Below, one piece after another: positions 15,507-43,448 of a DNA stretch of 43,448 nucleotides. Below the pieces are notes generated by a model that worked only from the letters and a program-made list of their open reading frames with translations, was not told the DNA's origin and did no database searches. Both the position numbers and the translations under genes were made by a program. Positions within the stretch are counted from its first letter, which is position 1. Every line of letters starts with the position of its first letter. This stretch comes from a virus: positions 1 through 43,448 of the IMG/VR virus record IMGVR_UViG_3300017408_000001. One strand, written 5' to 3'.

Positions 15507-15508
15507 CC

Positions 15509-16084
15509 ATGGCTCAGCCCATCATCAAGCCCTCGATTGAGTGGCCCACCCCTCAGATCAACGACGGCCATGGCGCCCTTGAAGATGTGTCGTGCCTGAT
15601 CGAGCGGCTTCTGGCCCTGATGAAGCATAACATTGACGAGATGCAGGAGGCGGTCATTAACCGCCCGGTCGCCGACGAGTTTCAGGCCAGTTGGATCAAC
15701 AATGTCTGGATGATTTTCCGGCTTGCTGACGAGAAACTGCAGGAAGTCGACACGATCGTCACGGCGATCGTTGAGGCGGGCCTCGCACCGCGCCGATCAT
15801 CGTTAGTCAGCCATACTCAGCAGTCAAGAAGCCGGGACTGGCGTCTCGCGCTCAATGCGGCGAATGCCGCCAACACGTCTGCCGACATGAGCGACGGTGC
15901 GATTGCTCTCGCCGGACGGCTCTTCGAACAGGCTGTGCGGACGCGCGTGGGATCTCTCGACGACTTCCGCGAAAAGCTCGGACTGCTTGACTCGAACTGC
16001 GGCTTCACCGGGCCGCATCTGGACGAGTTGTTCCGCGACCTCGACGCCCTTGGCGCTCGCGCGAGCCGTGAGTTGGCAGCATGA
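15509..16084 (+). CDS. Hypothetical 191-aa helical protein
   Basis: GGAGGG RBS. The start is 2 nt after the previous stop. Confidence 0.65.
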   Translation: MAQPIIKPSIEWPTPQINDGHGALEDVSCLIERLLALMKHNIDEMQEAVINRPVADEFQASWINNVWMIFRLADEKLQEVDTIVTAIVEAGLAPRRSSLVSHTQQSRSRDWRLALNAANAANTSADMSDGAIALAGRLFEQAVRTRVGSLDDFREKLGLLDSNCGFTGPHLDELFRDLDALGARASRELAA

Positions 16085-16836
16085 GCGCCCCCGCTTCCAT
16101 CGCGGAGGTCCTTGCTTCGATCAACGCTAAGCTGACCTTCCCTTCCCACGACCAAAATCACCCTAGCGACGAGATCATCAGCGCCTGGGAGAAGGTACGC
16201 GGCTGGAGGGATTGGCTCTACCAACAAGACGACATCAAGGGCTGCGGCACCGATGGTTGGACGGCAGAGCGCACCAACCTTCTTGATCGGGAGCAGCAAG
16301 ACCTTGAGCGTTTTGTCACCGGTAATTGGGCAACGACAATCGCCGGGGTGGTTGCCCAGCTATCGCTCGCCATCATCGACATCGATCAAAGCGCTTTGGT
16401 CGAGCGGTGCATCGTGCAGTCAGGACTTCGCGCCGCCTATCTCCAGCGCGACGGCTTGGACGGCGGCACCCAGCAGCTGATCGTAGCAGCCTATGAACTT
16501 CAGTGCATGGACTGGGAGGATGTAGTTGCGGCTTATGAGCGGTCGAAGCCATCTGGGAAGCTGGCGCATGACACGCTCAACGCAATCGACGCGCTGATGC
16601 GTCGGCGTCCGGAATTGGCGGATGATCTTGCTGCGCTGCGAACCTTAGCAAGCGCAAGTGAGCGCGCCACCAGCAATCACGAAACAGTCGACCGACTCAT
16701 GAAGACGTTGGTCGCCGAACCCGACGAGCTGCCGCGCAAGATCCAGATCCTGATCGATGAGGGCATGCTTGATGAGGCCGGGCCATGGCTGCTGCGCGAC
16801 GTCGCTTACCTCAACGCCAGCATAAAGGAGGCATAA
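16081..16836 (+). CDS. Hypothetical 251-aa helical protein
   Basis: ATGA overlap with the previous gene. Confidence 0.65.
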   Translation: MSAPASIAEVLASINAKLTFPSHDQNHPSDEIISAWEKVRGWRDWLYQQDDIKGCGTDGWTAERTNLLDREQQDLERFVTGNWATTIAGVVAQLSLAIIDIDQSALVERCIVQSGLRAAYLQRDGLDGGTQQLIVAAYELQCMDWEDVVAAYERSKPSGKLAHDTLNAIDALMRRRPELADDLAALRTLASASERATSNHETVDRLMKTLVAEPDELPRKIQILIDEGMLDEAGPWLLRDVAYLNASIKEA

Positions 16837-16838
16837 CC

Positions 16839-17777
16839 ATGCGCTTCCATATAACACGCGAGTTCTCGGCTGCACGGTCCGCTCATGCCGCCGCGTACGC
16901 CGCATGGGATGAGATCTCCGACAATCCTGACCCGCAGATTGCCGATCACTCGCCGGAAGCCAAGGCGGCGAGCCAAGCAGAATGCGAAGCGCTTGATGCC
17001 GTACTGTCCTTCGGCGCAACAACGCCGGCAGAGATCCAGGCCAAGCTCGCCTTTATGCGAGAGCGTGAAATCGACTCCTGCGCCACAGGTCACGCCGCTT
17101 GGATGGAGCAGATCGAGCGCGAGCTGATCGAGCTTCAGCGTCCGTGCGTCAGCCCTTCCATGGCACAGGCATTCGACGCATGGCGAGAAGCGTGGACGAC
17201 GTTCATTGAGAGCCCGGACGACGACCATAAGGCGCGGATAAGCGGCGAGACCTTCATCGCGTTGATGGACGCGCCCTGCTTCACTCCTGGCGACTTCATC
17301 ACGAAGGTCTATGTCAACCAGCTTGGCGAACATGGCCATACGCTTGGCGACGAAGACGCTGGCGCATTCCCCTTTGAGCTTGACCAACGACACCTGACTG
17401 GAAGCGGCGGCACGCACGATGATGCCGCGCAAGTTGCCTTGGCTCGGGACATCCGGGAATGTGACCTCGGCCGTTGCATGCTCGCGCTGGGGCGGGTCGA
17501 CTTTGATCCGGCGGATTGGGTTGCCGCCGCTCAGCGTGCGCAGATGGTGGTCTACGTTGCCATCCATCGGGATGGCACTCGATGGCTCTGCACTAGCGAG
17601 CCTGACGGTGACGCCAATGAAGGCCATGGCGATCGTTTTATCACCTGCCAAGCCCTGATAGCTGGCGGCCTTGGCGTAGTCGGTCAAGCCCGTCGTCAGG
17701 CAGTCATCGAACACATAATCGAACACGCACCCACGCTTCTCTTGGATTGCCGTGAGTGCGCGGAGGCAGCGGCATGA
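16839..17777 (+). CDS. Hypothetical 312-aa protein
   Basis: An AAGGAGG RBS precedes ATG 16839, which lies 2 nt after the previous stop. Confidence 0.65.
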   Translation: MRFHITREFSAARSAHAAAYAAWDEISDNPDPQIADHSPEAKAASQAECEALDAVLSFGATTPAEIQAKLAFMREREIDSCATGHAAWMEQIERELIELQRPCVSPSMAQAFDAWREAWTTFIESPDDDHKARISGETFIALMDAPCFTPGDFITKVYVNQLGEHGHTLGDEDAGAFPFELDQRHLTGSGGTHDDAAQVALARDIRECDLGRCMLALGRVDFDPADWVAAAQRAQMVVYVAIHRDGTRWLCTSEPDGDANEGHGDRFITCQALIAGGLGVVGQARRQAVIEHIIEHAPTLLLDCRECAEAAA

Positions 17778-18255: not shown

Positions 18256-18368
18256 GCCCTGACGCCATAGTCCTAAGCCTCTTCGCGATGATCTGGATCG
18301 GATGGCCGCTGCACAACATCGCTCACGATCTGCGGCTCCTGCGTAAGCTGGCGAGGAAAGAACCATGA
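18252..18368 (+). CDS. Micro-ORF, 38-aa hydrophobic peptide (below the ORF-track cutoff)
   Basis: ATGA-coupled at both ends (18252 and 18365). Encodes MSPDAIVLSLFAMIWIGWPLHNIAHDLRLLRKLARKEP. Confidence 0.45.
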   Translation: MSPDAIVLSLFAMIWIGWPLHNIAHDLRLLRKLARKEP

Positions 18369-19345
18369 CTCAGCCTTTAAACTACACGATCAAGGCGATC
18401 GAGGATCTTCGGGCGCTTCGCGACAAGGGCACGTGGTCACCTCACGATCGCATGGGCATCGACTTCATCATCAGCAAGCTGATCAAGGCGGAGGTTTTCG
18501 TGCTGCCCGACTTGGGGCAGCTGCTCGATCGCACGAAGCCCCGGCCCGAGGTCGCAGGCGAAGTCTACCGTCCGCCGCACCCCATCGTAGCGCTCGAGTA
18601 TCAAAGCGCGGTACCCGGCTGGACCCCAACATCGGAGTATGATGCTGCCCCGTCATCGCGGCGCATAGCGCTCGCATGGGACTGGGACGGCGTGTTCCCT
18701 GGCCCCGCATCGGCCAAGGAGCAGCACGACGTAGGCGAAGGCGTCTTTGTCGCGTCCATCTCATACTACGACAATCTCGGCATCTGGGTGCCCACGGGCG
18801 CGGCGCTGATGATGGGCTATGAGGCGGAGTACCGTGTTCCAGATCCTAGCGCCTACCGCGACAGCATGGTCGCCAGCGGCAGGGTCTCGCGAAAGACGGC
18901 GCAGGCGCCGACGCTCGTCATCCGCGACATGATGACGCTGCTGCCCGACAGCATGATGCAGCAGATCAAGAAGACCGGCGAGCAGGCGGCAGTTCAGGCT
19001 TTCGCAGCCGACGTGATGGACGAAGCCAACGCCTATAGCGATCTCTGCCTGGCGCTCGCCTGCAACAACGTCTCGACGACCAGGAACGGCCAGCCGGACC
19101 GGCTGAACCGCGCTCGCATCAAAGCAGGCAAGATCCCGCTGAAGGATTTCCATGTCCTCAAGATTGCGGGCGGTGGCGACGGCGGTGACGCGGGTCAGCC
19201 GCTCGGCAGCGGCGGGGTTCGGTCGCACCTGCGACGCGGGCACGTACGCCGCCTAAGCGCTGACCGCATCACTTGGGTGAACGCCACCATGGTTCGCGGC
19301 TCCCGGCCGGGCTTCGCCGACAAGCTCTATCAGATCAACAGCTAA
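18365..19345 (+). CDS. Hypothetical 326-aa protein
   Basis: ATGA-coupled. The C-terminus has a basic H-x-RRGH-x-RR...W...V motif. No family recognised. Confidence 0.65.
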   Translation: MTQPLNYTIKAIEDLRALRDKGTWSPHDRMGIDFIISKLIKAEVFVLPDLGQLLDRTKPRPEVAGEVYRPPHPIVALEYQSAVPGWTPTSEYDAAPSSRRIALAWDWDGVFPGPASAKEQHDVGEGVFVASISYYDNLGIWVPTGAALMMGYEAEYRVPDPSAYRDSMVASGRVSRKTAQAPTLVIRDMMTLLPDSMMQQIKKTGEQAAVQAFAADVMDEANAYSDLCLALACNNVSTTRNGQPDRLNRARIKAGKIPLKDFHVLKIAGGGDGGDAGQPLGSGGVRSHLRRGHVRRLSADRITWVNATMVRGSRPGFADKLYQINS

Positions 19346-21300: not shown

Positions 21301-21572
21301 GCGACCAGCCGACCAACCGGGATGAGGACTACCAGGATCAACTCGACCATCGGGCGCAACTACTGGCTAATCTAGCGGGTGAGCTAGTGGACGATCCCGA
21401 TGAGACATTAGGCTTACTTGCTCAGGCCCAGATGCTTGCCGCCATGGAGCACTTAACCCTGAAACAGTGGGCAGACGTTCAGCTTGAGACGGCCGAGAAC
21501 ATGTACGCGTCTATTCAAGCACGCCTGCTGGATGGAGAAGATGATAACTACAAGCCTCAGTTCCGTCGTTGA
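21297..21572 (+). CDS. Hypothetical acidic 91-aa protein
   Basis: ATGA overlap. Its 3' end overlaps the convergent int 3' end by 16 nt. Confidence 0.5.
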   Translation: MSDQPTNRDEDYQDQLDHRAQLLANLAGELVDDPDETLGLLAQAQMLAAMEHLTLKQWADVQLETAENMYASIQARLLDGEDDNYKPQFRR

Positions 21573-22858
21573 CCGTCCATCAGCGCGGCGGCGGGGGCCA
21601 TGTCCTTTATCAGCAGATCGGCCCATTCCTGCGATAGCTCGCGCCGCCGCTCCATGTGGCCGGCGCGATCGTAGGCGGCCTTGACCTTGTTCTCCGGCAC
21701 GTGAGCCAGCATCAGCTCGATCACGGCCGGGTCGCTCAAGCTCTTCCGCTTGACCGCCAGGCTGTTCATCGTCGTCGAGAAGCTGGATCGCCAGCCGTGC
21801 GGCACATGGCGCCCGAAGAACCCGACCCGGTTGTAGAGGTAGCCGATCGCGTTCTCGCTGATCGGCCGGTGGCTGTGGCGCTGACCGGGGAATACCAGCC
21901 GCCCACGCCCAGTGAGCCGGTACACGGCGCGCAGAACTTCGACGGCCTGCCAGCATAGTGGCACCTGATGCTCGAAATGTTCTTCGTCCTTCAGATCCAA
22001 GACCAGCTTCATGCGCTGCGCCGGGATTGTCCACGTAGGCAGGAAAGGGCCGAATGCGGTATCTTCCCAGTCGATGCCCTCGAACTCCGACCATTCGGCA
22101 CCGCGCACCATGCCTGGGCGCGACTGCGTGAGAGCGAGGAACCGCGAGGCCAGTTTGGTTACAGGTGAAGCGCCTGAAGCCTCGGCGGCGATCAGTACCT
22201 CGCGGGCCGCGTTCGGATCGGTAATTGCCGGCTGCTTGCCCTTCTTCGGCAACGGCTTGAGAGCCTTGCCGACGGCGGCGGCCGGGTCGACCGCCACGAT
22301 GCCTTCCGAGATCGCGTAGGAATAGACGGATGATATGCGCTGGCGCAGCCGCTTGGCCGTTTCGATGGAGCCCCTGTCCTCAACGGCGCGCAGAGCCTTC
22401 AGGACTAGCGGCGCATCGATTGTCACCAGCGGCTTCGCGCCCAGCGCCGGGAAGACGTCACGCTGCAGGCTGGTGATCACGTCGTCAGCATGGACCGGCG
22501 CCCAGCGCGGAGCCTGGAGCGCGAACCACGTGCGAGCGGCCTGCTCGAAGGTGACGAGCTTGGCCTGCTCGGCCTTCTCCTGCTCCTTGGCGTCCTGGGC
22601 GCGCTTGCGCGCACCTGACGGGTCTTCGTGGTTTCGGATCTTGCGCCTGGCCTCGTCGCGCCGCTCGCGCGCCTCGCTCAGCTTCACGTCGGGGTACGGC
22701 CCGAATGTCAGCAGCTTCTCCTTGCCGTGGAGCCGGAACTTCATGCGCCAGGACTTGAGACCCGTCGTTGCGACATACAGGTAGAGGCCGCCAGCGTCGG
22801 CCATCTTGTACGGCTTCTCGCGAGCGGCAGCGCCCTTCACTTCCTTGTCTGTCAGCAC
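21557..22858 (-). CDS. int: Tyrosine integrase, P4-like (DUF4102 N-terminal arm-binding domain)
   Basis: N-terminus LTDKEVKGAAAREKPYKMADAGGLYLYVATTGLKSWRMKFRLHGKEKLLTFGPYPDVKLSEARERRDEAR. The C-terminal catalytic region has HGWRSSFST and LAHV...Y. GTG start. Confidence 0.95.
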   Translation of the reverse strand: MLTDKEVKGAAAREKPYKMADAGGLYLYVATTGLKSWRMKFRLHGKEKLLTFGPYPDVKLSEARERRDEARRKIRNHEDPSGARKRAQDAKEQEKAEQAKLVTFEQAARTWFALQAPRWAPVHADDVITSLQRDVFPALGAKPLVTIDAPLVLKALRAVEDRGSIETAKRLRQRISSVYSYAISEGIVAVDPAAAVGKALKPLPKKGKQPAITDPNAAREVLIAAEASGASPVTKLASRFLALTQSRPGMVRGAEWSEFEGIDWEDTAFGPFLPTWTIPAQRMKLVLDLKDEEHFEHQVPLCWQAVEVLRAVYRLTGRGRLVFPGQRHSHRPISENAIGYLYNRVGFFGRHVPHGWRSSFSTTMNSLAVKRKSLSDPAVIELMLAHVPENKVKAAYDRAGHMERRRELSQEWADLLIKDMAPAAALMDGQRRN

Positions 22859-29781: not shown

Positions 29782-30354
29782 TCAGGCGCCCAGAATGATC
29801 TTGGTAAGCAGCGGAAGCACATCGACGCGCTTGGGGCCGATTGGCCGGTAGGACGGCCTGGCCACGCCGCTGTAGACCAGGGCCCGCAGATCGGCCGGCC
29901 ACTTGCCGTCGAAGAACATGGCGCGCTCGATCTTGGCGCGCTCCAGTGCGTTGCCCCGGTCGGTCCAATTCATGAAGCTGGCGCGGCTCTTGTCGCGCTT
30001 GCCGGCGCACCAGTGCTCGACCCAATCGGCAGTTCCAATCGCGCCAAAGTGCCATTGAAACGACAGAGCGGCGGCGAGCTGGATCTCGGTTAGGTCATGT
30101 TCGGCGAAGGCGCGGTGGACGGCCGGGTAGTACTGCTTGCGCATGAGGTCGACGGTCGCGCGCAGGCACGTTTCCAGTGACTGCGGCTTGTCCTTGTACT
30201 GCAGCACGTCGAAACCCGACTTTGTTGAGATCCCGCCCGCCCAGGTCCACACCGGCGGCTTGGCATTGTCCTTGTACGCCTCGAGCACGATGCCCTCGAC
30301 GCTGCAGCAGTACGCGGCAATGCGCGGCGTTAACGCCGTGACGATGATGTCCAT
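29782..30354 (-). CDS. Putative endolysin (lysozyme-like)
   Basis: AAGG lies 7 nt before ATG 30354. SVEGIVLEAYKDNAKPPVWTWAGGIST resembles the E-x8-D-x5-T catalytic arrangement of GH24-type lysozymes. It lies directly after two membrane-protein genes. Confidence 0.6.
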   Translation of the reverse strand: MDIIVTALTPRIAAYCCSVEGIVLEAYKDNAKPPVWTWAGGISTKSGFDVLQYKDKPQSLETCLRATVDLMRKQYYPAVHRAFAEHDLTEIQLAAALSFQWHFGAIGTADWVEHWCAGKRDKSRASFMNWTDRGNALERAKIERAMFFDGKWPADLRALVYSGVARPSYRPIGPKRVDVLPLLTKIILGA

Positions 30355-30400
30355 CAATCTACCTTTCGGGGAGAGCGCGGCGCGATGCCTGCGCGGGGAC

Positions 30401-31149: not shown

Positions 31150-32355
31150 CTAGATGCCCGACATCAAGGCAGTGTTCGCCGCCGCGAGTGCGTCCAGCTG
31201 GTACTGGCGCGGCGTACCCACATCGACATTCCACGCATCGATGCCGCTTCCATTCGCGACGTAACCGTAATTCCATAGAGCGGAGAGCGGCACTCGCTCG
31301 CGGACGATCGCTGCCAGCATTGTGGTGAATTGCGCCGTCTCGGCCGCAGCGTCCGCAGTCACACCGGCGTCGCCCCTGATGGCTCCGAACTCTCCAAGGA
31401 ACAGAGGCCGGCCGTGATGCTCCGCCATGGTCTTGAGCAGACCGATCAGCTGATCGGGCGTTGCCTTAGCAAAGGTCTGATCATTCCAGTACCAGAAGGC
31501 CTTGCGTGCTGCCTGGTAAGAATGGGCACACAGCGTATCGAAGCACCTGGGGTTCTCGTATTCCGGCCAAGGCAGCGCGCCCGGTGCGCCGCTCATCCAC
31601 TGGGCATAGGTGTCCAGACCGGCGCTGATGTTGTTGAATTGATTATACCGGTTGGGCAGTGAGATCGCCGCGCCGCTCGACAAAAGTCGCCCATGTGGGT
31701 CATTGGCTCTGACAACCGCGCACCAATCGGCTGCCGCGTTGAAAAGGTCGGCGGTTGTCAGCTGATCGGTAGTGCCGTTGGCATTAGCGGGTGCGGCGGC
31801 GTAACTAGCTGGACCTCCGTCAGCCAAAGGCGGGAAGCTGGCTCGCGGGAAGAGGTCCGCATAGGACTCGTACTCGTTGCCCATTTCCCACCCGAAGATT
31901 GCGGGGCTTTCCGCATATCGCTTCACGAATTCCGCCGTGTACGCACGCATGAACTGGCGCGTGTTGGAGGCTGGGTTGCCCCACTGGCCGATCGTATCGC
32001 GCTTGCCGGCCGAGGTGAAAGCCATAAGATCACAGGTGGTCGCGTGGCGCCAGAACATGGACGGGATGAGACCGATGCCGGCACTCTCGGCCGCGCTGAC
32101 GATCGCTGCGTTCTTCGCCCACCATCCCGCCGGGTTTGTGAGGTACTGCCGCCAGCCCGCATTGCCATTGGCGCCTGCCTCGAACTGCCCGGCGTTGTAC
32201 CGCACGAAGGGTACACCTTTGGCAGCTAGCAAAGCAAACTGCTGTGCAAGGTCATCGTGATTGAACAGGCTGTAGAAGTTGAGCCCAATAGCGCGGTACG
32301 GCCTGCCGCCCTTCAGGATTTGCGAGCGCGAGGCGGAAAGTCCGAGACGGGTCAT
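31150..32355 (-). CDS. Glycoside hydrolase family 5-like enzyme (candidate virion depolymerase)
   Basis: IFGWEMGNEY (acid/base NE motif) and RPLFLGEFGA (nucleophile Glu motif) sit in a TIM-barrel-like order. ATGA-coupled to the upstream tail-module gene. Confidence 0.7.
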   Translation of the reverse strand: MTRLGLSASRSQILKGGRPYRAIGLNFYSLFNHDDLAQQFALLAAKGVPFVRYNAGQFEAGANGNAGWRQYLTNPAGWWAKNAAIVSAAESAGIGLIPSMFWRHATTCDLMAFTSAGKRDTIGQWGNPASNTRQFMRAYTAEFVKRYAESPAIFGWEMGNEYESYADLFPRASFPPLADGGPASYAAAPANANGTTDQLTTADLFNAAADWCAVVRANDPHGRLLSSGAAISLPNRYNQFNNISAGLDTYAQWMSGAPGALPWPEYENPRCFDTLCAHSYQAARKAFWYWNDQTFAKATPDQLIGLLKTMAEHHGRPLFLGEFGAIRGDAGVTADAAAETAQFTTMLAAIVRERVPLSALWNYGYVANGSGIDAWNVDVGTPRQYQLDALAAANTALMSGI

Positions 32356-34161: not shown

Positions 34162-37053
34162 TCATCTGCCGAATGCCAGCCAGTCGAAGCCGTCGAGGTG
34201 CTGGGAATTGCTCGTGGCGGCCTGTGTCCCGACGGTCGCGCCGAACTTGGTTTTCGCGCCTACGACCTGAAGCCAAAGGTCGCGGTTGTTGTTGAAGACG
34301 GTCAGGTAGGGCACCGGAACGAAGCTCTGGCACTCGTTCGGAAACGGATCATCAAACACGACGGAGAGCTGCACTTCGTCGTTGATGGCGCCGCGAAACT
34401 TGCCCCACTTCATCACGACGCCGCCGGGTAGCTCCTGCGAGCCTTGGTCGGCCGACATGTCCTGCTTGAGCAGGAACTCGTAATCCATGGCGCCGACCTT
34501 GAGGGTGTCGACCTCGACGTCGTGCATCTTCACGACGCCGTCCTCGACCGCGAATACGGGCTGGCCGCCGTTCCCATCTGCGTCGAAGATGCGGAAGTAG
34601 TCGGCGACGAAGTCGAAGCCGCCTTCCACCCCGTCATTGTTGGCAAGGAAGCCGATCACGTGGCCGTTGCTGTCCAGCTTCACGCCGTAGCGCAGCAGCA
34701 CGCCGTCGATCGACTCGGCCAGCACCGCGAGTTCCGCGGTCTGGCCGTTGAAGGAGGTCTCCAGCGACAGCAGCTGCGTTGCCAGCGCACCGTCTTCATC
34801 GGCGCGCGCGATCTCTTCCGCGAGCACCATCGCGCTGACGTCCGCGATGTCGCTGGCGAGCGTGGCGGCCAGGGCCTGCCGAGCGGTCGCTTCCGCTTCG
34901 TCACCGCTCACCCGTGCCGACGCCTCGTTCAGGACGGCTGCATCTACATCAGCGATGTCGCTGCTCAGGGACGCGGAGAGTGCCTCGCGCAGCGCAGCCT
35001 CGGCGCTGACCGCATCGGCGCGCGTCGTCGCTTCGGTGGCGATTGCGGCCTCAAGGTCCGACACATGCCCGTCGACCACGCCCTGCAGAGCCGAGAGCCC
35101 CAGGTTGCGCTGCGCAGTCTCGGCTAGATCGGCCTCCGCGCGCGTGGTCGCCTCGCTGCTGATCGCCGCTTGCGTGGTAAGCAGCTTGCCGTCGACTTCG
35201 GTCCGCAGCGTGGAGATGGCGAGTTCGCGCTGCGAAGTTTCGGCACTGTCCGCGTCGGCGCGCGTCGTCGCTTCACTGCTGATCGCCGCCTGCAAGTCCG
35301 ACACATGGCCATCGACTTCGGTATGGAACAGCGAGATGGCGAGTTCGCGCGACATGGTCTCGGCGGCATCAGCCGAAGCGCGCACTGTCTGCTCAAGCTC
35401 AATAGCCGCCATGGCCGCATTGATGCCGTCGGTCGCGGCCGCTTCGATCTCGGTGATGAGCTGGACGAACGCCTCACCTTGCTCGACCCGCTCGTTGATC
35501 TCCTGCCGTACCCGGGTCGTAACCTCGATGCCGTCGAGGTGGAGCAGGCGCTCCCACCGGGCTTTACGCTCCTCGCCGAGCAGCTGAGCCGCGTAGGAGG
35601 CCAGCAGATTATTGCGGTGCTGGTCGACCAGCGACTGCACGCCTTCGACGATGTCGGCCGCCGAGGTGGTGGAGCCCAGCTTCTTGAGGGCTTCAATGAC
35701 GTTGTCGGCGGTGCCTTCGCCGACCGGCGTGCCTGGGGGAGCACCAACGGTCGCATTGTCCTCCGGCTTGGTGCCGTCCGGGTCCGCGATGTCGGGCCAG
35801 TTCACGATGGTGCCTATCGGCTCCACCTTGCCCGCGGTGCTCAGCCCCTCGACGGAGAGCGTCAAGTTGCTGACGGACTGCCCGACTTCAATCGAGAAGT
35901 CCTTGAAGAAGCCGTACACCGCAAGCGCATCCAGTGCGTCATCAGCAATCCACAGCGCCGGCCGTGCGCGGACTGCGGCGATCCGGCCGGCGACGATGTC
36001 GATCGCGTCGGTATCGATCAGCGCCTTCGCACTCATCCGCTTCGACCAGGCACGCTTGACGATCGTCACCTCGCCGAAGTCGTCGACCTCCTTGCGGCTG
36101 AAGTCGGTGATGCCGGCGCTCGGCGCGGCTTCCGTGAGACCAAGCCCGATGAGCTTGCCGATCATCAGCGTGCCGATAGACACTTGCCCCGTGCCCACGA
36201 TTGTCACGACGGCAGAGTCGGTGGTCGCCGGCAGATCGAGGAACAGCGCAGAGCCGCCCTCGCCGGGCGCGATGGTGCGGTCGTAGTAGCTGCCGATCCG
36301 CACCCGCACGGTGTCAGCTGTCACATCGAGCAGCGCGATCGCGTTGATCTCGCCGTTCTGCACCTCGACCTCAACGGGCCCGGCGGCGGTTGTTGCGGAG
36401 CCGAGAGCTTCGTCGAACATGGCCCAGCGGTTCGTTGGGCCGATGTCGGTCCACATGCCCGAAGCGCCAGTAGGATCACTGCCCTGGCTTGGCGCAGCGC
36501 TCTCATAGATCCGGTGCGTCGCCTGCTTGATCACGCGCGCGCCGAGCGGATAAGCCGTCCCTGCGGCCCACTCGGGATAGTCGTCTTCGACCACGGTGCT
36601 GGCGATCAGCGCCGGGCCTTGGATCGAGGCGGGCTGCAGCAGCCGCAGGGTCGACACGCCGCCTTCAGGCGCTGGGTCGGTGCCCGGATCGTTGAAGGGC
36701 TCCGATGCGGCGAGACCCTCGATCGTCAGAGTGCAATAGCTCACTGGCGGCAAAGCCAGATCAACCGAGAAGTCCTTGTAGAACCCCCGGAAGTCGAGCC
36801 AGGCGAACCGGTCGTCCGCAACCCACCGCGCCGCGGTGGCGCGCAGATCAGCAACCCGCCGCTGGAGTTCGTCGACGCCGTCGGTGGGCACGAGCAGCTT
36901 GACCGACATGCGCCGTGCAAAGGCGCGCGGCACGACCTTGGTGACACCGAAATCATCGGTGACACGCCGGCTGTAGTCGGTCAGCCCGATCGTCGGGGTT
37001 TCTTCAAGCGTGCCGAGCTGGAACTCGGCGCCGCCGTCCAAGACAACCTTCAA
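34162..37053 (-). CDS. Large tail fibre / host-specificity protein (963 aa)
   Basis: The TTG start overlaps the tape-measure stop. Parts, in order:
- a duplicated about 105-aa N-terminal domain (aa 11-116 and 291-406);
- a CBM5/12-like W..G..Y..G..V......Y...........P......W segment;
- 40-aa coiled repeats (AE..QR.L..S.L...VDG.....QAAISSEATTRA.AD);
- a C-terminal globular domain. Confidence 0.8.
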   Translation of the reverse strand: MKVVLDGGAEFQLGTLEETPTIGLTDYSRRVTDDFGVTKVVPRAFARRMSVKLLVPTDGVDELQRRVADLRATAARWVADDRFAWLDFRGFYKDFSVDLALPPVSYCTLTIEGLAASEPFNDPGTDPAPEGGVSTLRLLQPASIQGPALIASTVVEDDYPEWAAGTAYPLGARVIKQATHRIYESAAPSQGSDPTGASGMWTDIGPTNRWAMFDEALGSATTAAGPVEVEVQNGEINAIALLDVTADTVRVRIGSYYDRTIAPGEGGSALFLDLPATTDSAVVTIVGTGQVSIGTLMIGKLIGLGLTEAAPSAGITDFSRKEVDDFGEVTIVKRAWSKRMSAKALIDTDAIDIVAGRIAAVRARPALWIADDALDALAVYGFFKDFSIEVGQSVSNLTLSVEGLSTAGKVEPIGTIVNWPDIADPDGTKPEDNATVGAPPGTPVGEGTADNVIEALKKLGSTTSAADIVEGVQSLVDQHRNNLLASYAAQLLGEERKARWERLLHLDGIEVTTRVRQEINERVEQGEAFVQLITEIEAAATDGINAAMAAIELEQTVRASADAAETMSRELAISLFHTEVDGHVSDLQAAISSEATTRADADSAETSQRELAISTLRTEVDGKLLTTQAAISSEATTRAEADLAETAQRNLGLSALQGVVDGHVSDLEAAIATEATTRADAVSAEAALREALSASLSSDIADVDAAVLNEASARVSGDEAEATARQALAATLASDIADVSAMVLAEEIARADEDGALATQLLSLETSFNGQTAELAVLAESIDGVLLRYGVKLDSNGHVIGFLANNDGVEGGFDFVADYFRIFDADGNGGQPVFAVEDGVVKMHDVEVDTLKVGAMDYEFLLKQDMSADQGSQELPGGVVMKWGKFRGAINDEVQLSVVFDDPFPNECQSFVPVPYLTVFNNNRDLWLQVVGAKTKFGATVGTQAATSNSQHLDGFDWLAFGR
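35005..35364. repeat. Three tandem 120-nt repeats (with degenerate copies down to about 34780) inside the fibre gene
   Basis: Units start (minus strand) at 35364, 35244 and 35124. They encode the 40-aa repeats beginning at A564, A604 and A644. Confidence 0.8.
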
Positions 37054-40000
37054 CTGCCGGCCGCCACGCTGATAGCGGTACCGCCGCTCTCCGCCGTAAC
37101 ATCGTCCAGCTTGCTAGCTATGCGGCCTGTGTTCCCGGTGATTGCCGCATTGCCGCTGTTCATGTCGCTGCGCATTTGGGCAAGCTCCGCACGCAACGCC
37201 CTGATCTCATCAACCAGATTGTCGTTGGCCGGTGGGCTTGTCTCTGTGGCCGTACTTGCGTTCGCGGCAGAAGCGAGGGCGCCAATGATAGAGGCTGGGT
37301 CGTTCGCGCCAGTGATTGCACCGATAAGGTTGTATGTACCCTCCAAGCTCGCTGCAATCTGCGCCTGCACACGATCCAGCTCCTGCCTGCTGGTCGCAGT
37401 GTCGCCCGCAACCGACAACAGCGACTGACTGAGGCCCACGAGCTTGTTAGCCGCTTCCTGGTCCCCGCCGCGCGCTGCAAGGGTCGCAGCGTTGAACTGG
37501 CCCATCAGCTGCGCAAAGCTGCCGGAACTGCTGCCATTTGTGATGCCGCGAATGCGGTTCACTTCGGCCATGATGCCGTCGCCTACTGAGGTCCAGGCCT
37601 GGCGCAGCTGGTCGGCCGCCGCCGCGGCGTCCTTGGCGTCCTGCAATGCCCAGATCTGCTCCTGCAGCGCCTTGTTGCTGGGGTCGATCTTGGCAAGGTC
37701 GAGTGCGCGGATCGCCGCAGTGTCGCCCTGCAGTTCCAGCAGCTGGCGCTGCAGGTCCTGCTGTTCGGCCAGGATGTCGGCTGCGCTCTTCGCGCCGTTC
37801 ATGGCCGTCTGCAGATCGGCGAACGCGGGAGCAAGCTGCAGCAGCGTCGCATAGGTCGACTGCCCGGCCGCCGTGGTGAGATCCTGCGCTTCGACCAGCG
37901 CACGGAAGCCGGCGAGCGTGCCGGGCATCGCCAGGCCGAGGCTGTCGAACACTTGGGCGAACTGTCGGGTCTTCGCGGCGGCCTGCTCCTCCTTGCTGTA
38001 GTACGCGTCGAAGTAGGCGCCGATCGCGCTGGTAAAATCGCTCACGCTGTCGAACTGGTCGGCCAGTGCGAGCTTCGCATCGATGCTCATGGTGGCCGCA
38101 GAGCTGCTCAGCAGGCCCAGCGAGGCGGACACGCTCTCGACGGTCGACGACACCCGCACCAGCGTCTCGAACAAGCCCTCGCCGGCCTTCTGGAACTTCT
38201 CAATGCCGGGGAAGGCGGCGGTGGCCATCTTGTCGGCTGCGGCGCCGAAGACGGCGCTCAGCTTTTCCTCGATCTCGTCGCCGGTGAGGCCTTGGAGGTC
38301 GATCTTGCCGATGTCGACGACGAAGCCGCTAAGCTTGCTCTTGATCGCGTCGGTGCTTTCGCCCAGCGGGCCAGCCGCAGCGAGGATCGCATCATTGAAC
38401 TGGCGCAGGATCAGCGTGAACTGGTTCTCCAGCCCCGCATCGGCATCGCTGTACTTCGTCGAATACTTGGTCGACGTGGTAATGCCGAAGAGCTTCTTCT
38501 TCTTTTGCACGTCGGAATAGTAGGACGCGTCGAAGCCACCGGAGAGGATGTCGCCGAGCGTCTGATCGTCGCCGAACAGGCCGCTGCCCACCACCTTGGT
38601 CTTGGTGCCGAACAGGCCCTTCAGGATGCCGCCAACGAGCGGGATGGAACCGAGCACCGAGCCAATCGCATTGGCCTTGAAGCCCTGCGTCACGTCGCTG
38701 TTCGCGTTCACGTCGCCCGTGCGCAGCACCAGCGCAGCGAACCCGCCGATCTGGCTTTCGATCGAGCGAAGCGAAGCAGCCATCTGGCGCGAGTAGGTGA
38801 GCATGGTCGTGTCCACCTGCCTGAGCGCGTCGATCGAACGCTTGATGCTTTCCGACTTCGCCGTGGCGTCGCCCAGCACAGTGCCGGTGCCGTCGTTTGC
38901 CTTGGGCAAGGTGTTCTTGCCTCCTCCAAGCGAACCCACGACCGAGATGCCGGCCGCCACCAACGCTGCAGCGGTTGCGGCCATGGCGGCGAGGTTGAGG
39001 GGGAAAGGCAGCTTGGACTGCGAGGCAATGCCAGCCGTGCCCTCTGCGGTCGCAACAGCAGCTGCACCAGCGACCTTCGTCGTGGTCTCGAGTGCGCTCT
39101 GGATCATCGACTGCAGCGACATCGCAAGCTGGATCGCGCGGAACACCTTCTCGGCAGCCTCCATGGCTTTGTAGCCGGTAGAGTGCTCCTTGAAGAAACC
39201 CTTCGCCGCATCGGTCATGTCGCCGAAGGCTGCGATTTGTGCTCCAGACGAACGCAGAGCCCAACGCTCGCGCTCCTGGGCCAGCAGCTTCTCGTTGCCG
39301 CCCGCCTGCGTGATCTTTTCGGCGTGCTCCTGCTCGGCACGGGTGCGGCTCGCCTGGTAGGTAGCATAGATGGATGCCATGTCGCCGATCGCGCGACCGG
39401 CATTCCCGAACGCATCCGCCATGCCCTGGCCGGCGGACTGAACCTTGCCCGCGATGATGTCCCACTTCTCGGCGGTGAGTGTGAGGCTGTCGTTGTAAGC
39501 GTTCTGCGCCTGAGCGTTGCGGACACCTTGAACAGCAAGATCGCCCTGCTGCTTGACGAAAGCTTCAACCTTCGCCGGGTTGGCACCGCCAGTGAGCCAA
39601 GTGGCCGCCTGCTGCCGAGCCTTCAGCTCTGCCATGCCGCGTGCGCGCGCCTCCTCGGTAGCGCCGATCAGGCGCAGCTCCTCGCGCAGTTCAGCGAGAC
39701 GATCCTTGCCGCCCTGTAGCGCCGCAAGCAGCTGAGCATCGGCCTCGGCCTTCGTCAGACTTGCACGGGCGACGCGCTGATCCTCCAAGGCGCGAGTGAT
39801 CTCCTTGATACCCTGCAGATCCTTGGTCTTCTGGGCCGCTTCCAGCGCAGCCAGCAATGGCAGCTGCGCGATACGGTCACGCACGAGATCGGCGGCGCGC
39901 GATGCGGGTACCAGCCCGTCCTGCACCAGCGCATTGACCTGCTCCTGTGCGGCGGCCTGGTCGCGCATGGCCGCAGTCGCCTTCGCCGCGTCCACAACCC

Positions 40001-42113
40001 GCTGCGCTATCGCCAGGCGAACCTGCCGCGCGACAAACTCCTCGATGTCGCCGCGCTTCTTGATCGCGTCGGACTCGGCCTTCGCGCGTGCCTCGGCGAT
40101 CAGTGCTTCACCACCGGACACCCGATAAGCTGCCGCCAGCTTGTAGAGGTTCTTGATCTGCGCTTCGATCGCCGCGGCCTCGCGCGCAAGCTGCTCGGCG
40201 TGCTTGTCGGTCTTGCCCTTCTCAGGGTCGAGGAAGCCTTTGTCCTCGGCCTGCTTGCGCAGCCGTGCCTGAGCGTTCAGTCGGGCCTGGGCCGCCAGAG
40301 CCGCCTTCCCGATGCCGACATAGTCCTTGTCGACCTTGGTCGAGAGCACATTGTCCCACGCCTTGGCGACCTTGTCGGCAGCGCCCTTGTGGTTGTTGAC
40401 GATGGTGGCGATCTGCGGCGCAGAAAGGGTGGGTAGCGCCAAGCCAGCCTTGCCGAGCACGCCATTGGCCGACGTGATAAACGAGTTCAGGCCGGTGACC
40501 GACTTCCTGATCAGATTGTTCAGCGCCTCGATAGCCGAGTTGACCGCGCTCACAAAAACGTCGGACATCGCCGCCGGGAACATCTTCCACGTCGCCATGA
40601 AGGCATCGTACGCGCGCACGCCGCGACTGATCAGCAGGTTAAGATAGTTGGTCGTGGCGGCGCCGGCCCAATCCAGCCAGCCCTTCATCCAGTCCCACGT
40701 CTTCGTGACCGAGCCGCCGATCGCGTCCCAGATGGCTGCGCCGGCAAGCTGGAACACCGCTTTGGTGGTGTCGCCGTAGGTCACGGTGACATCGTCCAGT
40801 TGCCGGATCTCCTTGGCGGTCAGACCGAGCGACGCCACGTAAGCCTTCATGGGCTCACCCTCGTTCGCCGCGTCGTTTACGACCTTCAGGCCGACCGCAA
40901 AGGCAGCAAGAGCAGCGACGCTAGCGATCACGGCTGTGCTGGTTGCAGCAAAGCCGAGTGCCGCCTTCGCAGCATTGCCGAGCTGCCCGGCGAAACCCTT
41001 CAGGCCGCCTTCGGCCATCATGCCGATCTGGGCGATCTGGCCGCCCTGTTGAATAAAGACCGTCATCGGGTGCTGCCCGCTCAACAGGCCCTGCACGATG
41101 TCAGGCGTCTGAATAGCGAACTGCTTCAAGGCAAAGCTACTCTTGCCGGCGGAGACGGCGAGGGCGTCGTGCTGATGCCCTGCTGAAGCAAGGCGAGCGG
41201 TCAGAACCTGCTGCTGCCGGGCGTACTCGGTCGGCGCAGTAGCGCCCGCATGGTACAGGCGCGTCGACTCCGCAATCTCGGCGTTGAGGCGCTTCGTGGC
41301 TGCGTAAAGCGGGTCAGTCGCCATCCGCAGGCGCTCGGCGGCCTCAGCATCAGCCAGCTGCGCGGCGTGCGAGCCGCGTACAAGATCGGTCAAGCGCTGC
41401 TGCTCGTCAGCCAGGCGCTTAGTTGCAAGCGCCGCCGCGTCCTTCTCGCGCTTTTCGTCCGCTAGAAACTTTTCGGTAAGCGCACTGTAAGTCGCGCCCA
41501 TTCCGGGATCGGTCGCCTTCTCTCGACCAAGGCCTGTATTGCGCCTGATAGCGGCCTCGATCTGCTCGCGCGACGCCAAGGCGGAATTGACGCGTTGGAT
41601 CGCCTCGATCTCCGCCTGGGCGGCGCGCTCCGCAGCAATGACACGCGCTTGCGCTGCATCAGCGGCGGCCGCAGCCATCTTGCCCTGCAGCGCGATCTCT
41701 TCATTGATCAGCCGCCCGGCAAGTTCGGTGAGACCGGCTTGCTCCGCGGCAAGCGCAGCAGCCACGGTCTTCGTTTCGCGCAGCTCGTCACGTGATTTGC
41801 CGAAGGTGGCGTTCTGGCGCTCCAATTGACGCACCAGCGCCTCGCCGGACTTCTCGATCTGACCGAGTGAACGGGCAGCGCTCGCCGCTTCGCGTCCAAC
41901 GGCGTTGCCGAACGAAGTGATCTGCGCAGTAGCATTGCTGAGGTTCAACGTGCCGCGCGATGCGGCCTCGATCTTCTGGAACTCCCGCACGGCATTTGCC
42001 TGGGTGACGCCAATCAGGTCGTCCAGCGACCTGAGCCGCCCGAACGAGTCATGGAAGTCGATGGCGAAGCCGACGCCAAGCATCGCCCCTTCTTCATCCA
42101 TGCGGACCTCCAT
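37050..42113 (-). CDS. Tail tape measure protein (1687 aa)
   Basis: Size, long Ala/Gln/Glu-rich coiled regions and a central hydrophobic block (GFAGQLGNAAKAALGFAATSTAVIASVAALAAFAVGL). It lies between the chaperones and the fibre gene. Confidence 0.9.
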   Translation of the reverse strand: MEVRMDEEGAMLGVGFAIDFHDSFGRLRSLDDLIGVTQANAVREFQKIEAASRGTLNLSNATAQITSFGNAVGREAASAARSLGQIEKSGEALVRQLERQNATFGKSRDELRETKTVAAALAAEQAGLTELAGRLINEEIALQGKMAAAAADAAQARVIAAERAAQAEIEAIQRVNSALASREQIEAAIRRNTGLGREKATDPGMGATYSALTEKFLADEKREKDAAALATKRLADEQQRLTDLVRGSHAAQLADAEAAERLRMATDPLYAATKRLNAEIAESTRLYHAGATAPTEYARQQQVLTARLASAGHQHDALAVSAGKSSFALKQFAIQTPDIVQGLLSGQHPMTVFIQQGGQIAQIGMMAEGGLKGFAGQLGNAAKAALGFAATSTAVIASVAALAAFAVGLKVVNDAANEGEPMKAYVASLGLTAKEIRQLDDVTVTYGDTTKAVFQLAGAAIWDAIGGSVTKTWDWMKGWLDWAGAATTNYLNLLISRGVRAYDAFMATWKMFPAAMSDVFVSAVNSAIEALNNLIRKSVTGLNSFITSANGVLGKAGLALPTLSAPQIATIVNNHKGAADKVAKAWDNVLSTKVDKDYVGIGKAALAAQARLNAQARLRKQAEDKGFLDPEKGKTDKHAEQLAREAAAIEAQIKNLYKLAAAYRVSGGEALIAEARAKAESDAIKKRGDIEEFVARQVRLAIAQRVVDAAKATAAMRDQAAAQEQVNALVQDGLVPASRAADLVRDRIAQLPLLAALEAAQKTKDLQGIKEITRALEDQRVARASLTKAEADAQLLAALQGGKDRLAELREELRLIGATEEARARGMAELKARQQAATWLTGGANPAKVEAFVKQQGDLAVQGVRNAQAQNAYNDSLTLTAEKWDIIAGKVQSAGQGMADAFGNAGRAIGDMASIYATYQASRTRAEQEHAEKITQAGGNEKLLAQERERWALRSSGAQIAAFGDMTDAAKGFFKEHSTGYKAMEAAEKVFRAIQLAMSLQSMIQSALETTTKVAGAAAVATAEGTAGIASQSKLPFPLNLAAMAATAAALVAAGISVVGSLGGGKNTLPKANDGTGTVLGDATAKSESIKRSIDALRQVDTTMLTYSRQMAASLRSIESQIGGFAALVLRTGDVNANSDVTQGFKANAIGSVLGSIPLVGGILKGLFGTKTKVVGSGLFGDDQTLGDILSGGFDASYYSDVQKKKKLFGITTSTKYSTKYSDADAGLENQFTLILRQFNDAILAAAGPLGESTDAIKSKLSGFVVDIGKIDLQGLTGDEIEEKLSAVFGAAADKMATAAFPGIEKFQKAGEGLFETLVRVSSTVESVSASLGLLSSSAATMSIDAKLALADQFDSVSDFTSAIGAYFDAYYSKEEQAAAKTRQFAQVFDSLGLAMPGTLAGFRALVEAQDLTTAAGQSTYATLLQLAPAFADLQTAMNGAKSAADILAEQQDLQRQLLELQGDTAAIRALDLAKIDPSNKALQEQIWALQDAKDAAAAADQLRQAWTSVGDGIMAEVNRIRGITNGSSSGSFAQLMGQFNAATLAARGGDQEAANKLVGLSQSLLSVAGDTATSRQELDRVQAQIAASLEGTYNLIGAITGANDPASIIGALASAANASTATETSPPANDNLVDEIRALRAELAQMRSDMNSGNAAITGNTGRIASKLDDVTAESGGTAISVAAGS

Positions 42114-42153
42114 GATACAGGGCGCAAATACGAACCAAGGGACTCGGGTCGAT

Positions 42154-42501
42154 ATGATGCGGTGGATTTTCGCGGCTGCAGCGCTGACGGCACAACCAGC
42201 GGTGGCAGCGCCGACCTACTTGAACTGCTCGGTGGACAACGAGACTTCGGTGGCGAAGATCGACATTGCGCTAGACGAACAAGCCCAAACCGCCGTTTTT
42301 TCTTCACCTGCAGAAGGGAAGACCCAGACGCGAGCTGCCGCCTTCACAGCGCAGAGCGTCACTATTCCCGACACGGTCTTTACATGGACGATCGACCGCG
42401 TGTCTCTGGCGCTCACCAGAGTGACGACCATAGGTGAGAAGCGTTGGGACGACCGCGGCCAGTGCAAGATCGCGCCGGTGCCGGCGAACCGCGCCTTCTA
42501 A
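42154..42501 (+). CDS. Secreted 115-aa protein encoded antisense to the late operon (moron)
   Basis: Signal peptide MMRWIFAAAALTAQPAVAAP and two Cys residues. Local GC is lower (a TTTTTTCTTC run). Its stop overlaps the convergent stop of the chaperone T frame (CTAA). Confidence 0.6.
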   Translation: MMRWIFAAAALTAQPAVAAPTYLNCSVDNETSVAKIDIALDEQAQTAVFSSPAEGKTQTRAAAFTAQSVTIPDTVFTWTIDRVSLALTRVTTIGEKRWDDRGQCKIAPVPANRAF

Positions 42502-42965
42502 CCGAGAAGCATCCGCAACTTCTCGACTTCGACCTGCTTTTCGCGCTCGGTAACCGGCGCTCGCCATGGTGGCGGGCAGTTCTCATCCTCGGCACGTCGG
42601 CCTTCGGTCAGGTACTCCATCGACAACTTGCGGAGCAGCCTGATCTCCCACCGGGCAAGGTGGATACCCATCGCGTCCTGCCAACCCTTGATGCTCTGCC
42701 AGCTGATCGGGCCTGCGCCCATGCCGGCCACCTCTGTCAGTCCGATCTCCAGTAAGCGAGCCAGGATGTGCGGAGCAGGATTGGACGGCATGGCCGGAAC
42801 GATGCCATCCCGCTTCATCTGCTCCACACGACTGACTGGTGGCGGCTGATTGTCCGCCTTCGCCCGCTTGCTACCCTCTGCCGGCTTCGGCGTGGCATTG
42901 AGCCACGCCATGTGCCGGACGTAGAGCGTCAGGCCTCGGTCGACGCGGGCTTGAAGTTTCCCCAA
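42498..42965 (-). CDS. Tail assembly chaperone T segment (expressed as G-T fusion by -1 frameshift)
   Basis: The ORF is in the -1 frame relative to 42929-43348 and overlaps it by 37 nt. There is no convincing independent RBS, and the ORF-track start is TTG inside the slippery site. Confidence 0.6.
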   Translation of the reverse strand: MGKLQARVDRGLTLYVRHMAWLNATPKPAEGSKRAKADNQPPPVSRVEQMKRDGIVPAMPSNPAPHILARLLEIGLTEVAGMGAGPISWQSIKGWQDAMGIHLARWEIRLLRKLSMEYLTEGRRAEDENCPPPWRAPVTEREKQVEVEKLRMLLG

Positions 42966-43348
42966 TCACGCAGCGCTTTCTGCACCTGAACAACGATGAA
43001 GCCGAGCTTCTTGTCCGCGTAGAGGGCGCGAAACAACTCCTTGCCCTGCTTGTCGCCAGCCGGCGGGTAGCTGAGGTTTTCGAACGCAACGGTCAGCGCA
43101 GCCAGATCGTCGGCCTGCTCGGTATCGCGCTGCTCGAGCGGCGGCATGGCGACTTTGCCATCGTTGTCCTGCATCCGCTTCACCGCGCGAGCGGTCTGGC
43201 GATCTTCAACCTCGGCGAACGCCTGGGAGCCGGGGCTGTACAGCACGATGCGCACAGGCTTGCCGTCGACATAGAGGTGGTTGCCGTCCGCACCCTTGAT
43301 GTGGATCGGCGCGGTGTCAGCGACCGCCTGGGTGGTGATATCGAACAT
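42929..43348 (-). CDS. Tail assembly chaperone G
   Basis: AGGA lies 8 nt before ATG 43348. The 139-aa acidic protein follows the major tail gene across the circular junction and carries the slippery site near its 3' end. Confidence 0.65.
   Translation of the reverse strand: MFDITTQAVADTAPIHIKGADGNHLYVDGKPVRIVLYSPGSQAFAEVEDRQTARAVKRMQDNDGKVAMPPLEQRDTEQADDLAALTVAFENLSYPPAGDKQGKELFRALYADKKLGFIVVQVQKALRDWGNFKPASTEA
42956..42962 (-). other. Programmed -1 ribosomal frameshift slippery heptamer G GGA AAC
   Basis: The minus strand reads tgG GGA AAC in the G frame, an X XXY YYZ heptamer. It lies 8 codons before the G stop. Slipping gives GGG AAA in the T frame. Confidence 0.65.
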
Positions 43349-43448
43349 GAGGATTTCCTTTCGCGGGAAGGTGCACCAGTCCAGCCCCACAGCCCGCGAT
43401 GAGCAGGACGGAACTGGTGCGTAGATGCCGGCGCGGGCAGACCGGGCA
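43326..43448. repeat. Right copy of terminal direct repeat (identical to 1-123)
   Basis: Exact 123/123 match by manual alignment, anchored on the ORF-track frame of 42929-43390. Confidence 0.9.

Follow-up and report, generated by a model that had tools for sequence, protein, structure and literature searches.

In this work we analyzed ORF115, an open reading frame (ORF) at positions 42154..42501 (plus strand) of the 43,448-nt viral DNA IMGVR_UViG_3300017408_000001 from IMG/VR (positions 1 to 43,448 of that record, in the following called the window), which runs antisense to its neighbours on both sides, the T frame of the tail assembly chaperone G/GT and the tape measure gene (TMP). Comparison with related prophages shows that ORF115 is an accessory gene or moron in the sense of Juhala and Hendrix, namely an extra gene of differing base composition at a junction that is tight in relatives, and its 115-aa product, judged from the ORF call, the homologues and an AlphaFold2 model, is the predicted precursor of a small exported beta protein. 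That ORF115 is a real moron coding for an exported protein is highly probable in our view. The complete reading, taken loosely, is that of a periplasmic accessory protein which is expressed from the prophage and benefits the lysogen, with superinfection exclusion as the leading candidate for this benefit, and to this reading as a whole we assign a probability of roughly 0.45.

To characterize the junction between T and TMP we used the T protein as bait and collected 33 prophage loci, all belonging to Sphingomonadales genomes, in which the gap was measured from the T stop to the conserved TMP N-terminus (M-D-D-x-S-P-x-L-E-V-G-F-A-I-D). The gaps are bimodal, with 17 of the 33 loci showing a tight junction (-8 to 52 nt) and 16 containing 381–2319 nt of cargo, which has a guanine plus cytosine (GC) content of 0.50–0.62 (0.50–0.59 in 15 of the 16 loci) compared to 0.61–0.67 in the flanks. 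The original prediction, which had been made from the window sequence alone, regarded G/GT and TMP as normally contiguous; this describes the 17 tight loci and is thus true for about half of the relatives, the other half carrying cargo. Its reading of ORF115 as a moron agrees well with this division into tight junctions and varied cargo of lower GC content and also with the slot itself, which is the site of HK97 gene 15, the first element that was termed a moron (PMC3594210).

The cargo is of differing kinds and is found in both orientations. Members of the ORF115 family are present in antisense in Novosphingobium AP12 (L013) and in a Sphingopyxis metagenome-assembled genome (L015), and TM2-domain proteins are also encoded in antisense (L021, 5405..5794 (-), and L032, 5409..5726 (-)). 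In sense orientation we found DUF6232 membrane proteins (L017, 5439..5831; L018, 5450..5830; L020, 5414..5842, all on the plus strand), for which the Pfam scan covered the L017 copy alone, those in L018 and L020 being assigned through their sequence resemblance, as well as lipoproteins and other signal-peptide proteins (L016, L019, L025, L038 and L042). Judged by eye, further cargo ORFs resemble BrnT/BrnA toxin-antitoxin proteins (pairs in L018 and L025), Rha/KilA-type proteins and HNH proteins. Besides the ORF115 family the slot is mostly filled with envelope proteins, that is TM2, DUF6232, lipoproteins and signal-peptide proteins. Nearly all loci whose T is most similar (at least 61% identity) have an occupied slot, with L028 as the exception, but their cargo differs, which indicates a rapid turnover. 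The T–TMP junction is a cargo hotspot in sphingomonad prophages. In one locus (L045) the gap of 388 nt contains only an antisense fragment (approximately 5543..5785, minus strand) that corresponds to family positions 52–74 (TGIVVTRRALFSPNEVRV) and appears to be a decayed copy of the ORF115 family.

As the original prediction had stated, ORF115 is a 115-aa ORF on the opposite strand with two Cys residues (N-terminus MMRWIFAAAALTAQPAVAAP, Cys25 and Cys104) and a signal peptide, the latter being backed by the AXA statistics of 74 family members described below. Its TAA stop (42499–42501) overlaps the TAG stop of the convergent T frame in the sequence CTAA (42498..42501), no terminator being found there, and the same 4-nt stop overlap is present in L001-5, L006-9, L010-11, L012/13 and L015. 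The separation of T and TMP, given earlier as 384 bp, has this value up to the first TMP ATG and increases to 396 nt if TMP starts at 42101, which is the likely start. The local GC content is indeed lower, with 0.606 for ORF115 and 0.633 for the window, although this difference is modest, and GC at third codon positions (GC3) is 0.716 in ORF115 versus 0.76–0.82 in G, T and TMP. At 42111..42114 the minus-strand TMP ORF, with its first ATG, and the plus-strand ORF115 frame, with an in-frame ATG further upstream, share the palindrome CATG; from the alignment of homologues and the positions of the Shine-Dalgarno (SD) sequences, the later starts at 42101 for TMP and at 42154/42157 for ORF115 are preferred.

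When the region was shuffled 2000 times, an ORF of at least 115 codons arose in 178 cases (9%), and the length of ORF115 is by itself not significant. We therefore compared the six frames of the gap between the three closest homologous loci and found that the ORF115 frame alone is open in each of them, which makes it the only credible ORF as had been claimed. The minus-strand ORFs of the gap (83, 87 and 97 aa) were rejected as genes as they are not kept open among the homologues, the one of 83 aa being the usual third-position shadow of ORF115, so that no conserved minus-strand gene is found here. A word-indexed protein search led to two homologues with 46% and 43% identity, both exactly 115 aa long. 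In their contigs they are flanked by a Phage_TAC_18 gene on one side and, at the TMP position, by a gene for ~1650 aa with a TMP-like N-terminus, and they are likewise antisense and have the same 4-nt stop overlap. It is this comparison, with its shared open frame, homologues, profile matches and conserved residues, and not the length, which shows that ORF115 is a real protein-coding gene.

In an exhaustive profile search at least 400 representatives of 50%-identity clusters were found at E ≤ 1e-3 and 83 at E ≤ 1e-10, nearly all with a length of 105–135 aa. An alignment of 79 sequences shows C25, R82 and C104 to be invariant and P20, L23, E42, F64, V69, L85, G102, R113 and F115 to be nearly invariant. 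Only few members carry a name, which is always ‘hypothetical protein’ (e.g., WP_157222357.1 from Novosphingobium sp. AP12), and no database names or describes this large family, which is thus an undescribed one. A Pfam scan of the 79 members at E ≤ 0.1 gave zero matches, neither to MliC/PliC (PF09864) or the lipocalins nor to any other family, the sole PADLOC match was Cas5d at E 0.052, which is chance level, and a profile search of PDB sequences gave no match to the family. Narrow peptide patterns that were derived from the three closest proteins were found neither in IMG/VR nor in GTDB.

The predicted Sec signal peptide of ORF115 comprises 18 aa (MMRWIFAAAALTAQPAVA, 42154..42207, plus strand) with the cleavage site between AVA and AP, and by heuristic scoring it can be divided into the n, h and c parts MMR, WIFAAAALTA and QPAVA, followed by AP. 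The same heuristic applied to 74 family members revealed an alanine at position -3 in 58/74 and at position -1 in 55/74, a median signal peptide length of 18.5 aa and a hydrophobic core with a median best 9-residue hydropathy of 2.6. Mature family proteins have a median length of 96.5 aa and exactly two Cys in 74/74, and mature ORF115 is an acidic protein of ~97 aa and 10.5 kDa. With its small residues at -3 and -1, ORF115 is a predicted substrate for export by Sec and cleavage by signal peptidase I. The first Cys follows 7 residues past the AXA site in the motif Y-L-x-C, in which the residue x varies between members and is frequently polar or charged (N, S, T, Q, E, K, D, R). A bacterial lipoprotein of the Llp, Cor, Bor or Ltp type was rejected, as the protein has no lipobox ([LVI][ASTVI][GAS]C) and the residue before Cys25 is variable.

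Structure prediction, which had been suggested as a check, was performed with AlphaFold2 and the 79-sequence alignment and resulted in a confident model (predicted local distance difference test, pLDDT, 91.1; predicted template modelling score, pTM, 0.78) of an antiparallel beta meander with 8 strands (residues 21–28, 33–41, 46–51, 56–61, 68–72, 76–81, 86–93 and 96–106). A disulfide between Cys25 in strand 1 and Cys104 in strand 8 that closes the barrel is plausible from the model. The conserved C-terminal tail P-x-[KN]-R-A-F, which is PANRAF in ORF115, is less ordered and not part of a strand. This model and an earlier one from a 3-sequence alignment were both submitted to Foldseek. The weak PDB neighbours are all calycin-like binders (FABP, LolA, GID4 and a haemophore) with template modelling (TM) scores of 0.35–0.46, and the best match in BFVD is the uncharacterized phage protein A0A6J7WPL2 (TM score 0.65, E 3e-4), for which there is no functional information. 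Two known classes of small envelope beta proteins were rejected: a periplasmic lysozyme inhibitor of the MliC/PliC type, since there is no PF09864 match and no MliC/PliC chain among the top 50 Foldseek PDB matches, and an 8-strand outer-membrane barrel of the Ail/Lom/OmpX type, for which ~150 or more residues and a C-terminal beta-signal strand ending in Phe are expected and which is opposed by the lack of a Pfam match, the mature length of ~97 aa, the short strands of 5–11 residues and the position of PANRAF outside a strand.

The gene had been described as inserted, which fits to the tight junction in 17 of the 33 relatives, but a recent insertion is at odds with its retention. Six diverged lineages (window/L005, L001, L002-4, L006-9, L010-11, L012/13 and L015) keep the family gene in antisense and with the identical 4-nt overlap, and as they share both, ORF115 is a long-term resident of the slot. 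It also evolves faster than its structural neighbours, as the family proteins in the slot (110–119 aa) share 33–47% identity in their mature part, compared to 55–72% for the adjacent T C-terminus and 45–66% for the TMP N-terminus (the last range leaves out comparisons with L006, as the start of its truncated TMP could not be located). Two of the lineages are independent prophage remnants. In L006-9 (~8001–8758) the end of T carries a fusion with the ATPase half of TerL, after which come the family gene, a truncated TMP of 1010 aa and host genes, and in L010/L011 (~7047–8656) the family gene stands between a T of 106 aa and a TMP stub of 303 aa with no head genes within 16 kb. As the family ORF is intact in both remnants while its neighbours are truncated, this suggests a host-level selection for the gene that is independent of virion production.

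Family members at other genomic positions point in a similar direction. Where a Mu-like prophage ends (L046/47), P0050 is located 2 nt downstream of a CI-like helix-turn-helix (HTH)/S24 repressor gene on the same strand. Directly after another CI-like HTH/S24 repressor gene, also on its strand and opposite to the early genes, we found P0024 (L055). The site of P0083 is an immunity region (L048), where an HTH repressor gene lies upstream of it and a YdaS/Cro-like gene opposite to it, and P0062 follows an integrase gene at the boundary of the element (L049/50). Two more contexts that were inspected were uninformative; all informative ones are prophages or remnants and a chromosomal housekeeping copy was not seen among them. 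Sites next to repressor and integrase genes and in immunity regions are classic positions of lysogen-expressed genes. Taken together, the strand opposite to the late genes, these lysogeny-linked positions of the family and the survival in remnants make it probable, by analogy, that ORF115 is expressed from the prophage.

Based on these data we propose the following model. As the neighbours G, T, TMP and a gene for a 963-aa tail protein are all late genes on the minus strand, ORF115 would need its own promoter, which would have to overlap the TMP start region and would allow transcription in a lysogen whose late operon is silent. The product would be exported by Sec as a precursor and cleaved between AVA and AP, and the mature protein would form an 8-strand antiparallel beta meander or barrel in the periplasm, probably closed by the Cys25–Cys104 disulfide and with the short conserved tail P-x-[KN]-R-A-F remaining at its C-terminus. 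There it could protect the lysogen at the envelope by excluding superinfecting phages during the passage of tail tip and tape measure through the periplasm and the entry of their DNA. During lytic growth the late transcript would cross ORF115 in antisense, which is expected to damp its expression. Exclusion as the actual role is a tentative assignment by analogy, which we favour because HK97 gp15 sets a precedent at this position, most of the other cargo codes for envelope proteins and ORF115 evolves faster than the genes next to it. One might go further and regard the family as an unrecognized but widespread class of periplasmic superinfection-exclusion proteins in Sphingomonadales and other alphaproteobacteria, with the C-terminal tail (P-x-K/N-R-A-F) binding the incoming TMP or tail tip or a host periplasmic entry factor, and with transcription of ORF115 and of the late tail genes being mutually exclusive because of the antisense placement without a terminator, but in this extended form we consider the idea unlikely.

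The space between the TMP start and the ORF115 start is a divergent intergenic region of only 52 nt (42102..42153), which harbours the TMP SD sequence GGAGG (minus strand), an SD-like sequence AAGGGA for ORF115 and a weak hairpin (42135..42147). Over this region and the first TMP codons a TTSRTC-N17-TAnAnn arrangement is weakly conserved in five lineages, and the AT-richer stretch of this candidate promoter is, on the late strand, the T-rich tail of the hairpin just before the TMP SD sequence. A hairpin before TMP is a clear terminator in many of the cargo-bearing loci, as in HK97, and is found at none of the tight junctions. Strong GC hairpins with a T-run are located within the ~60 nt before the TMP start in L014, L016, L017, L019, L020, L021, L030, L035 and L042, and they are present even when the cargo is antisense (L021 and L030). 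Since hairpin and T-run directly precede the TMP SD sequence in most cargo-bearing junctions, late transcription in the phages having them must read through a terminator to reach TMP, presumably by antitermination. For the window hairpin a role as terminator or attenuator was rejected, as it is no stronger than those of shuffled sequences (z 0.05). From the overlap of the stops and the lack of a terminator it follows that a transcript of ORF115 would have to continue into T and G in antisense, and that ORF115 would have to be crossed by late transcripts on their way to TMP. The transcriptional interference during lytic growth that had been predicted is a structurally reasonable hypothesis for this arrangement.

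Several results speak against the proposed model. A scan with the sigma-70 consensus, which captures alphaproteobacterial promoters poorly, did not reveal a promoter for ORF115, and the best candidate (TTCATC at 42093–42098, N17, TACAGG at 42116–42121) agrees with the consensus at 6 of 12 positions, its -35 element being set by the Met-Asp-Glu/Asp codons of TMP. A terminator after ORF115 was searched for, including one embedded inside T, but was not found. Regarding function, neither ORF115 nor any of the 79 family members has a match in Pfam, PHROG, NCBIfam or PADLOC, BLASTP of ORF115 against HK97 gp15 gave no alignment at E ≤ 100, and Foldseek against PDB gave nothing significant for both models (best E 0.011–0.012, TM score 0.24–0.46), so that all of these searches revealed no similarity to known exclusion proteins in sequence or fold. 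The weakly calycin-like fold of the model would also fit ligand binding. Finally, members of the family are also found at sites distant from any TMP, and the adjacency of ORF115 and TMP therefore reflects an insertion hotspot and no functional tie.

The main rival to an exclusion protein is a lysogenic-conversion factor that is not directed against phages. In this case the periplasmic beta meander would be a binder of a small hydrophobic ligand or of a protein in the host envelope and would thereby aid host fitness, for example by tolerance to toxins, bacteriocins or lysozyme or by nutrient handling. All of the weak Foldseek neighbours are calycin-like binders, the gene is intact in prophage remnants beside host genes and the lysogeny-linked positions fit any benefit expressed from a prophage and not exclusion alone. 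On the other hand there is no significant fold match (best E 0.011), no Pfam match to MliC/PliC, lipocalins or other families over the 79 members, and the informative contexts are all prophages or remnants with no chromosomal housekeeping copy seen. We consider such a host factor somewhat unlikely.

A function in the lytic cycle, such as lysis timing, release, or blocking re-adsorption or injection into lysing cells, might be expected from the location in the late region, and phage T4 produces Sp and Imm, which are periplasmic or membrane proteins, during infection. However, ORF115 is encoded on the strand opposite to the late operon and cannot be expressed by late transcription. In about half of the related phages the slot contains no gene, so that ORF115 is not required for growth. 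In addition, other family members belong to repressor or integrase operons and the gene is kept in remnants that are unable to make virions. A lytic role is thus improbable. Even less probable is a mainly regulatory role in which convergent or antisense transcription tunes the tail genes or silences leaky late transcription in lysogens, with the protein being secondary. Such a role would make use of the stop–stop overlap without a terminator, by which ORF115 transcripts would be forced into T and G, and of the hairpin and T-rich stretch just before the TMP SD sequence in many cargo-bearing loci, but it explains neither the constraint on the protein (invariant Cys and Arg, conserved signal peptide and C-terminal tail) nor why the family functions at quite different genomic positions, and the window hairpin is no better than shuffles. 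That ORF115 is a chance ORF in a non-coding spacer or decayed remnant, for which only the 9% of shuffles with an ORF of this length could be put forward, is already refuted by the frame being conserved and open across all six lineages, the conservation pattern at the protein level with 400 profile matches and the confident AlphaFold2 model.

The prophage-expressed periplasmic protein which we favour belongs to a phage whose genome is complete in the window. The first and the last 123 nt (1..123 and 43326..43448) are an identical direct repeat, which shows that the window is a closed circular contig with a genome of ~43.3 kb (about 43,325 bp) and that the tail operon thus runs from the end of the window into its start. 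The modules are in HK97-type order with TerS, TerL, portal, ClpP-like protease, capsid (PF05065), gp6-like connector, HK97 gp10-like protein and tail completion protein, followed across the circular junction by G/GT, ORF115 and TMP. The phage is an HK97-like siphophage of Sphingomonadales. It is temperate, as a tyrosine integrase (21557..22858, minus strand) and a CI/LexA-like repressor with HTH and S24 domains (14510..15115, plus strand) are encoded, and it also carries DnaB and a Dam methylase. Among 50,697 phage records neither the region nor members of the ORF115 family had a blastn or tblastn match and no cultured phage of this lineage is contained; the T relatives there, from Acinetobacter and Mannheimia phages, show 25–32% identity only.

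The tail assembly chaperone G (42929..43348, minus strand; 139 aa starting with MFDITTQ, stop TGA at 42929–42931) was assigned from its position and the frameshift arrangement, and gene calls for G in L005, L001 and L002 have 139–141 aa. The slippery heptamer G_GGA_AAC, which can be read from the sequence at 42956..42962 (minus strand), is in X_XXY_YYZ register with the G frame and leads by a -1 frameshift into the T frame of GT (42498..42962, minus strand, stop TAG at 42498–42500). T matches PF23812 (Phage_TAC_18, E 5e-8) and the tail chaperonin family phrog_3817 and is 62–69% identical to T of the homologous loci. TMP (37050..42101, minus strand) has 1683 aa from the likely start, and its N-terminal part matches PF06791 (TMP_2, E 3e-11) as well as tape measure PHROGs. 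Its ORF opens with the ATG at 42113, but the ATG at 42101 has a GGAGG at 5-nt spacing and was picked by the gene callers in the identical public contig L005; the N-terminus MDEEGAMLGVGFAID is conserved over the 33 loci. A muralytic domain was not detected in the TMP of the window. Among the distal tail genes we noticed a GH5 (cellulase-family) protein (31150..32355, minus strand), which may be a tail-associated polysaccharide depolymerase, with a phage lysozyme nearby (29782..30357, minus strand). Downstream of the CI-like repressor and on the same strand there are several ORFs without a Pfam match at 15449..17777 and 18365..19345 (plus strand), and these may be additional accessory genes that are expressed in the lysogen.

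It is mainly through morons that temperate phages alter their hosts, and outside of enterobacteria and Pseudomonas only few of these genes are understood. Our analysis shows that the T–TMP junction, the first moron slot known from HK97, is also a busy cargo hotspot in a group of uncultured sphingomonad phages. The arrangement itself is conventional and implies no new principle; the value lies in the family, for which we describe a large number of unnamed, predicted exported proteins with a confident model, no structural relative and a location that points to lysogeny-linked expression. If the family does exclude phages, a new mechanism of exclusion in the periplasm would be at work in an order of bacteria that is of environmental importance, and the family would also be a useful marker for the annotation of prophage accessory genes.

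Among known systems, the calycin-like barrels (FABP, lipocalin, LolA and GID4) share the up-and-down antiparallel topology with 8 strands and ~100 residues, but the TM scores of 0.24–0.46 and E values of at least 0.011 are below any homology threshold and ORF115 has no helix-turn-helix lid and no sequence match to them. T4 Sp (spackle), T5 Llp, Cor of phi80 and N15 and Ltp of the Streptococcus phage TP-J34 are, like ORF115, small signal-peptide proteins, which act outside the cytoplasm against phage entry. Sp inhibits the tail lysozyme and Ltp acts on the tape measure. A lysozyme-inhibitor mechanism like that of Sp has no obvious target in the window TMP, as a muralytic domain is not detectable there. 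Cor has been described as exclusion factor (PMC3594210), as has Ltp (PMC3952083), but no sequence or fold relationship of these four proteins to ORF115 was found.

The lambda genes bor and lom and other late-region morons are accessory genes within late operons which are expressed from the prophage and have envelope products, and bor is oriented opposite to the late genes. Bor differs from ORF115 in being a lipoprotein, as ORF115 has no lipobox, and Lom is an 8-strand outer-membrane barrel of ~200 aa, whereas the length of ORF115 does not suffice for a transmembrane barrel and a Pfam match is lacking. With HK97 gene 15 ORF115 shares the slot between the -1 frameshifted chaperone (gp13/14) and TMP in an HK97-type morphogenesis module, the GenBank layout of HK97 being G/GT at 7472..8145, gp15 at 8203..8391 on the same strand, a putative terminator at 8398..8422 and TMP from 8435. 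Gp15 is missing in related phages, has its product in the envelope, is expressed from the prophage and confers superinfection exclusion by a block of DNA entry that depends on the tail region (PMC3594210, which also cites Lom). Membership of ORF115 in the gp15/YebO family of single-pass inner-membrane proteins of ~60 aa was rejected, as no alignment was found and ORF115 is predicted to be a beta protein with a cleaved signal. The two genes thus differ in their arrangement, with gp15 being sense to the tail genes and followed by a terminator before TMP and ORF115 being antisense without one, and in their products, a 62-aa YebO-like inner-membrane protein in HK97 and a predicted 115-aa exported beta protein in the sphingomonad phage.

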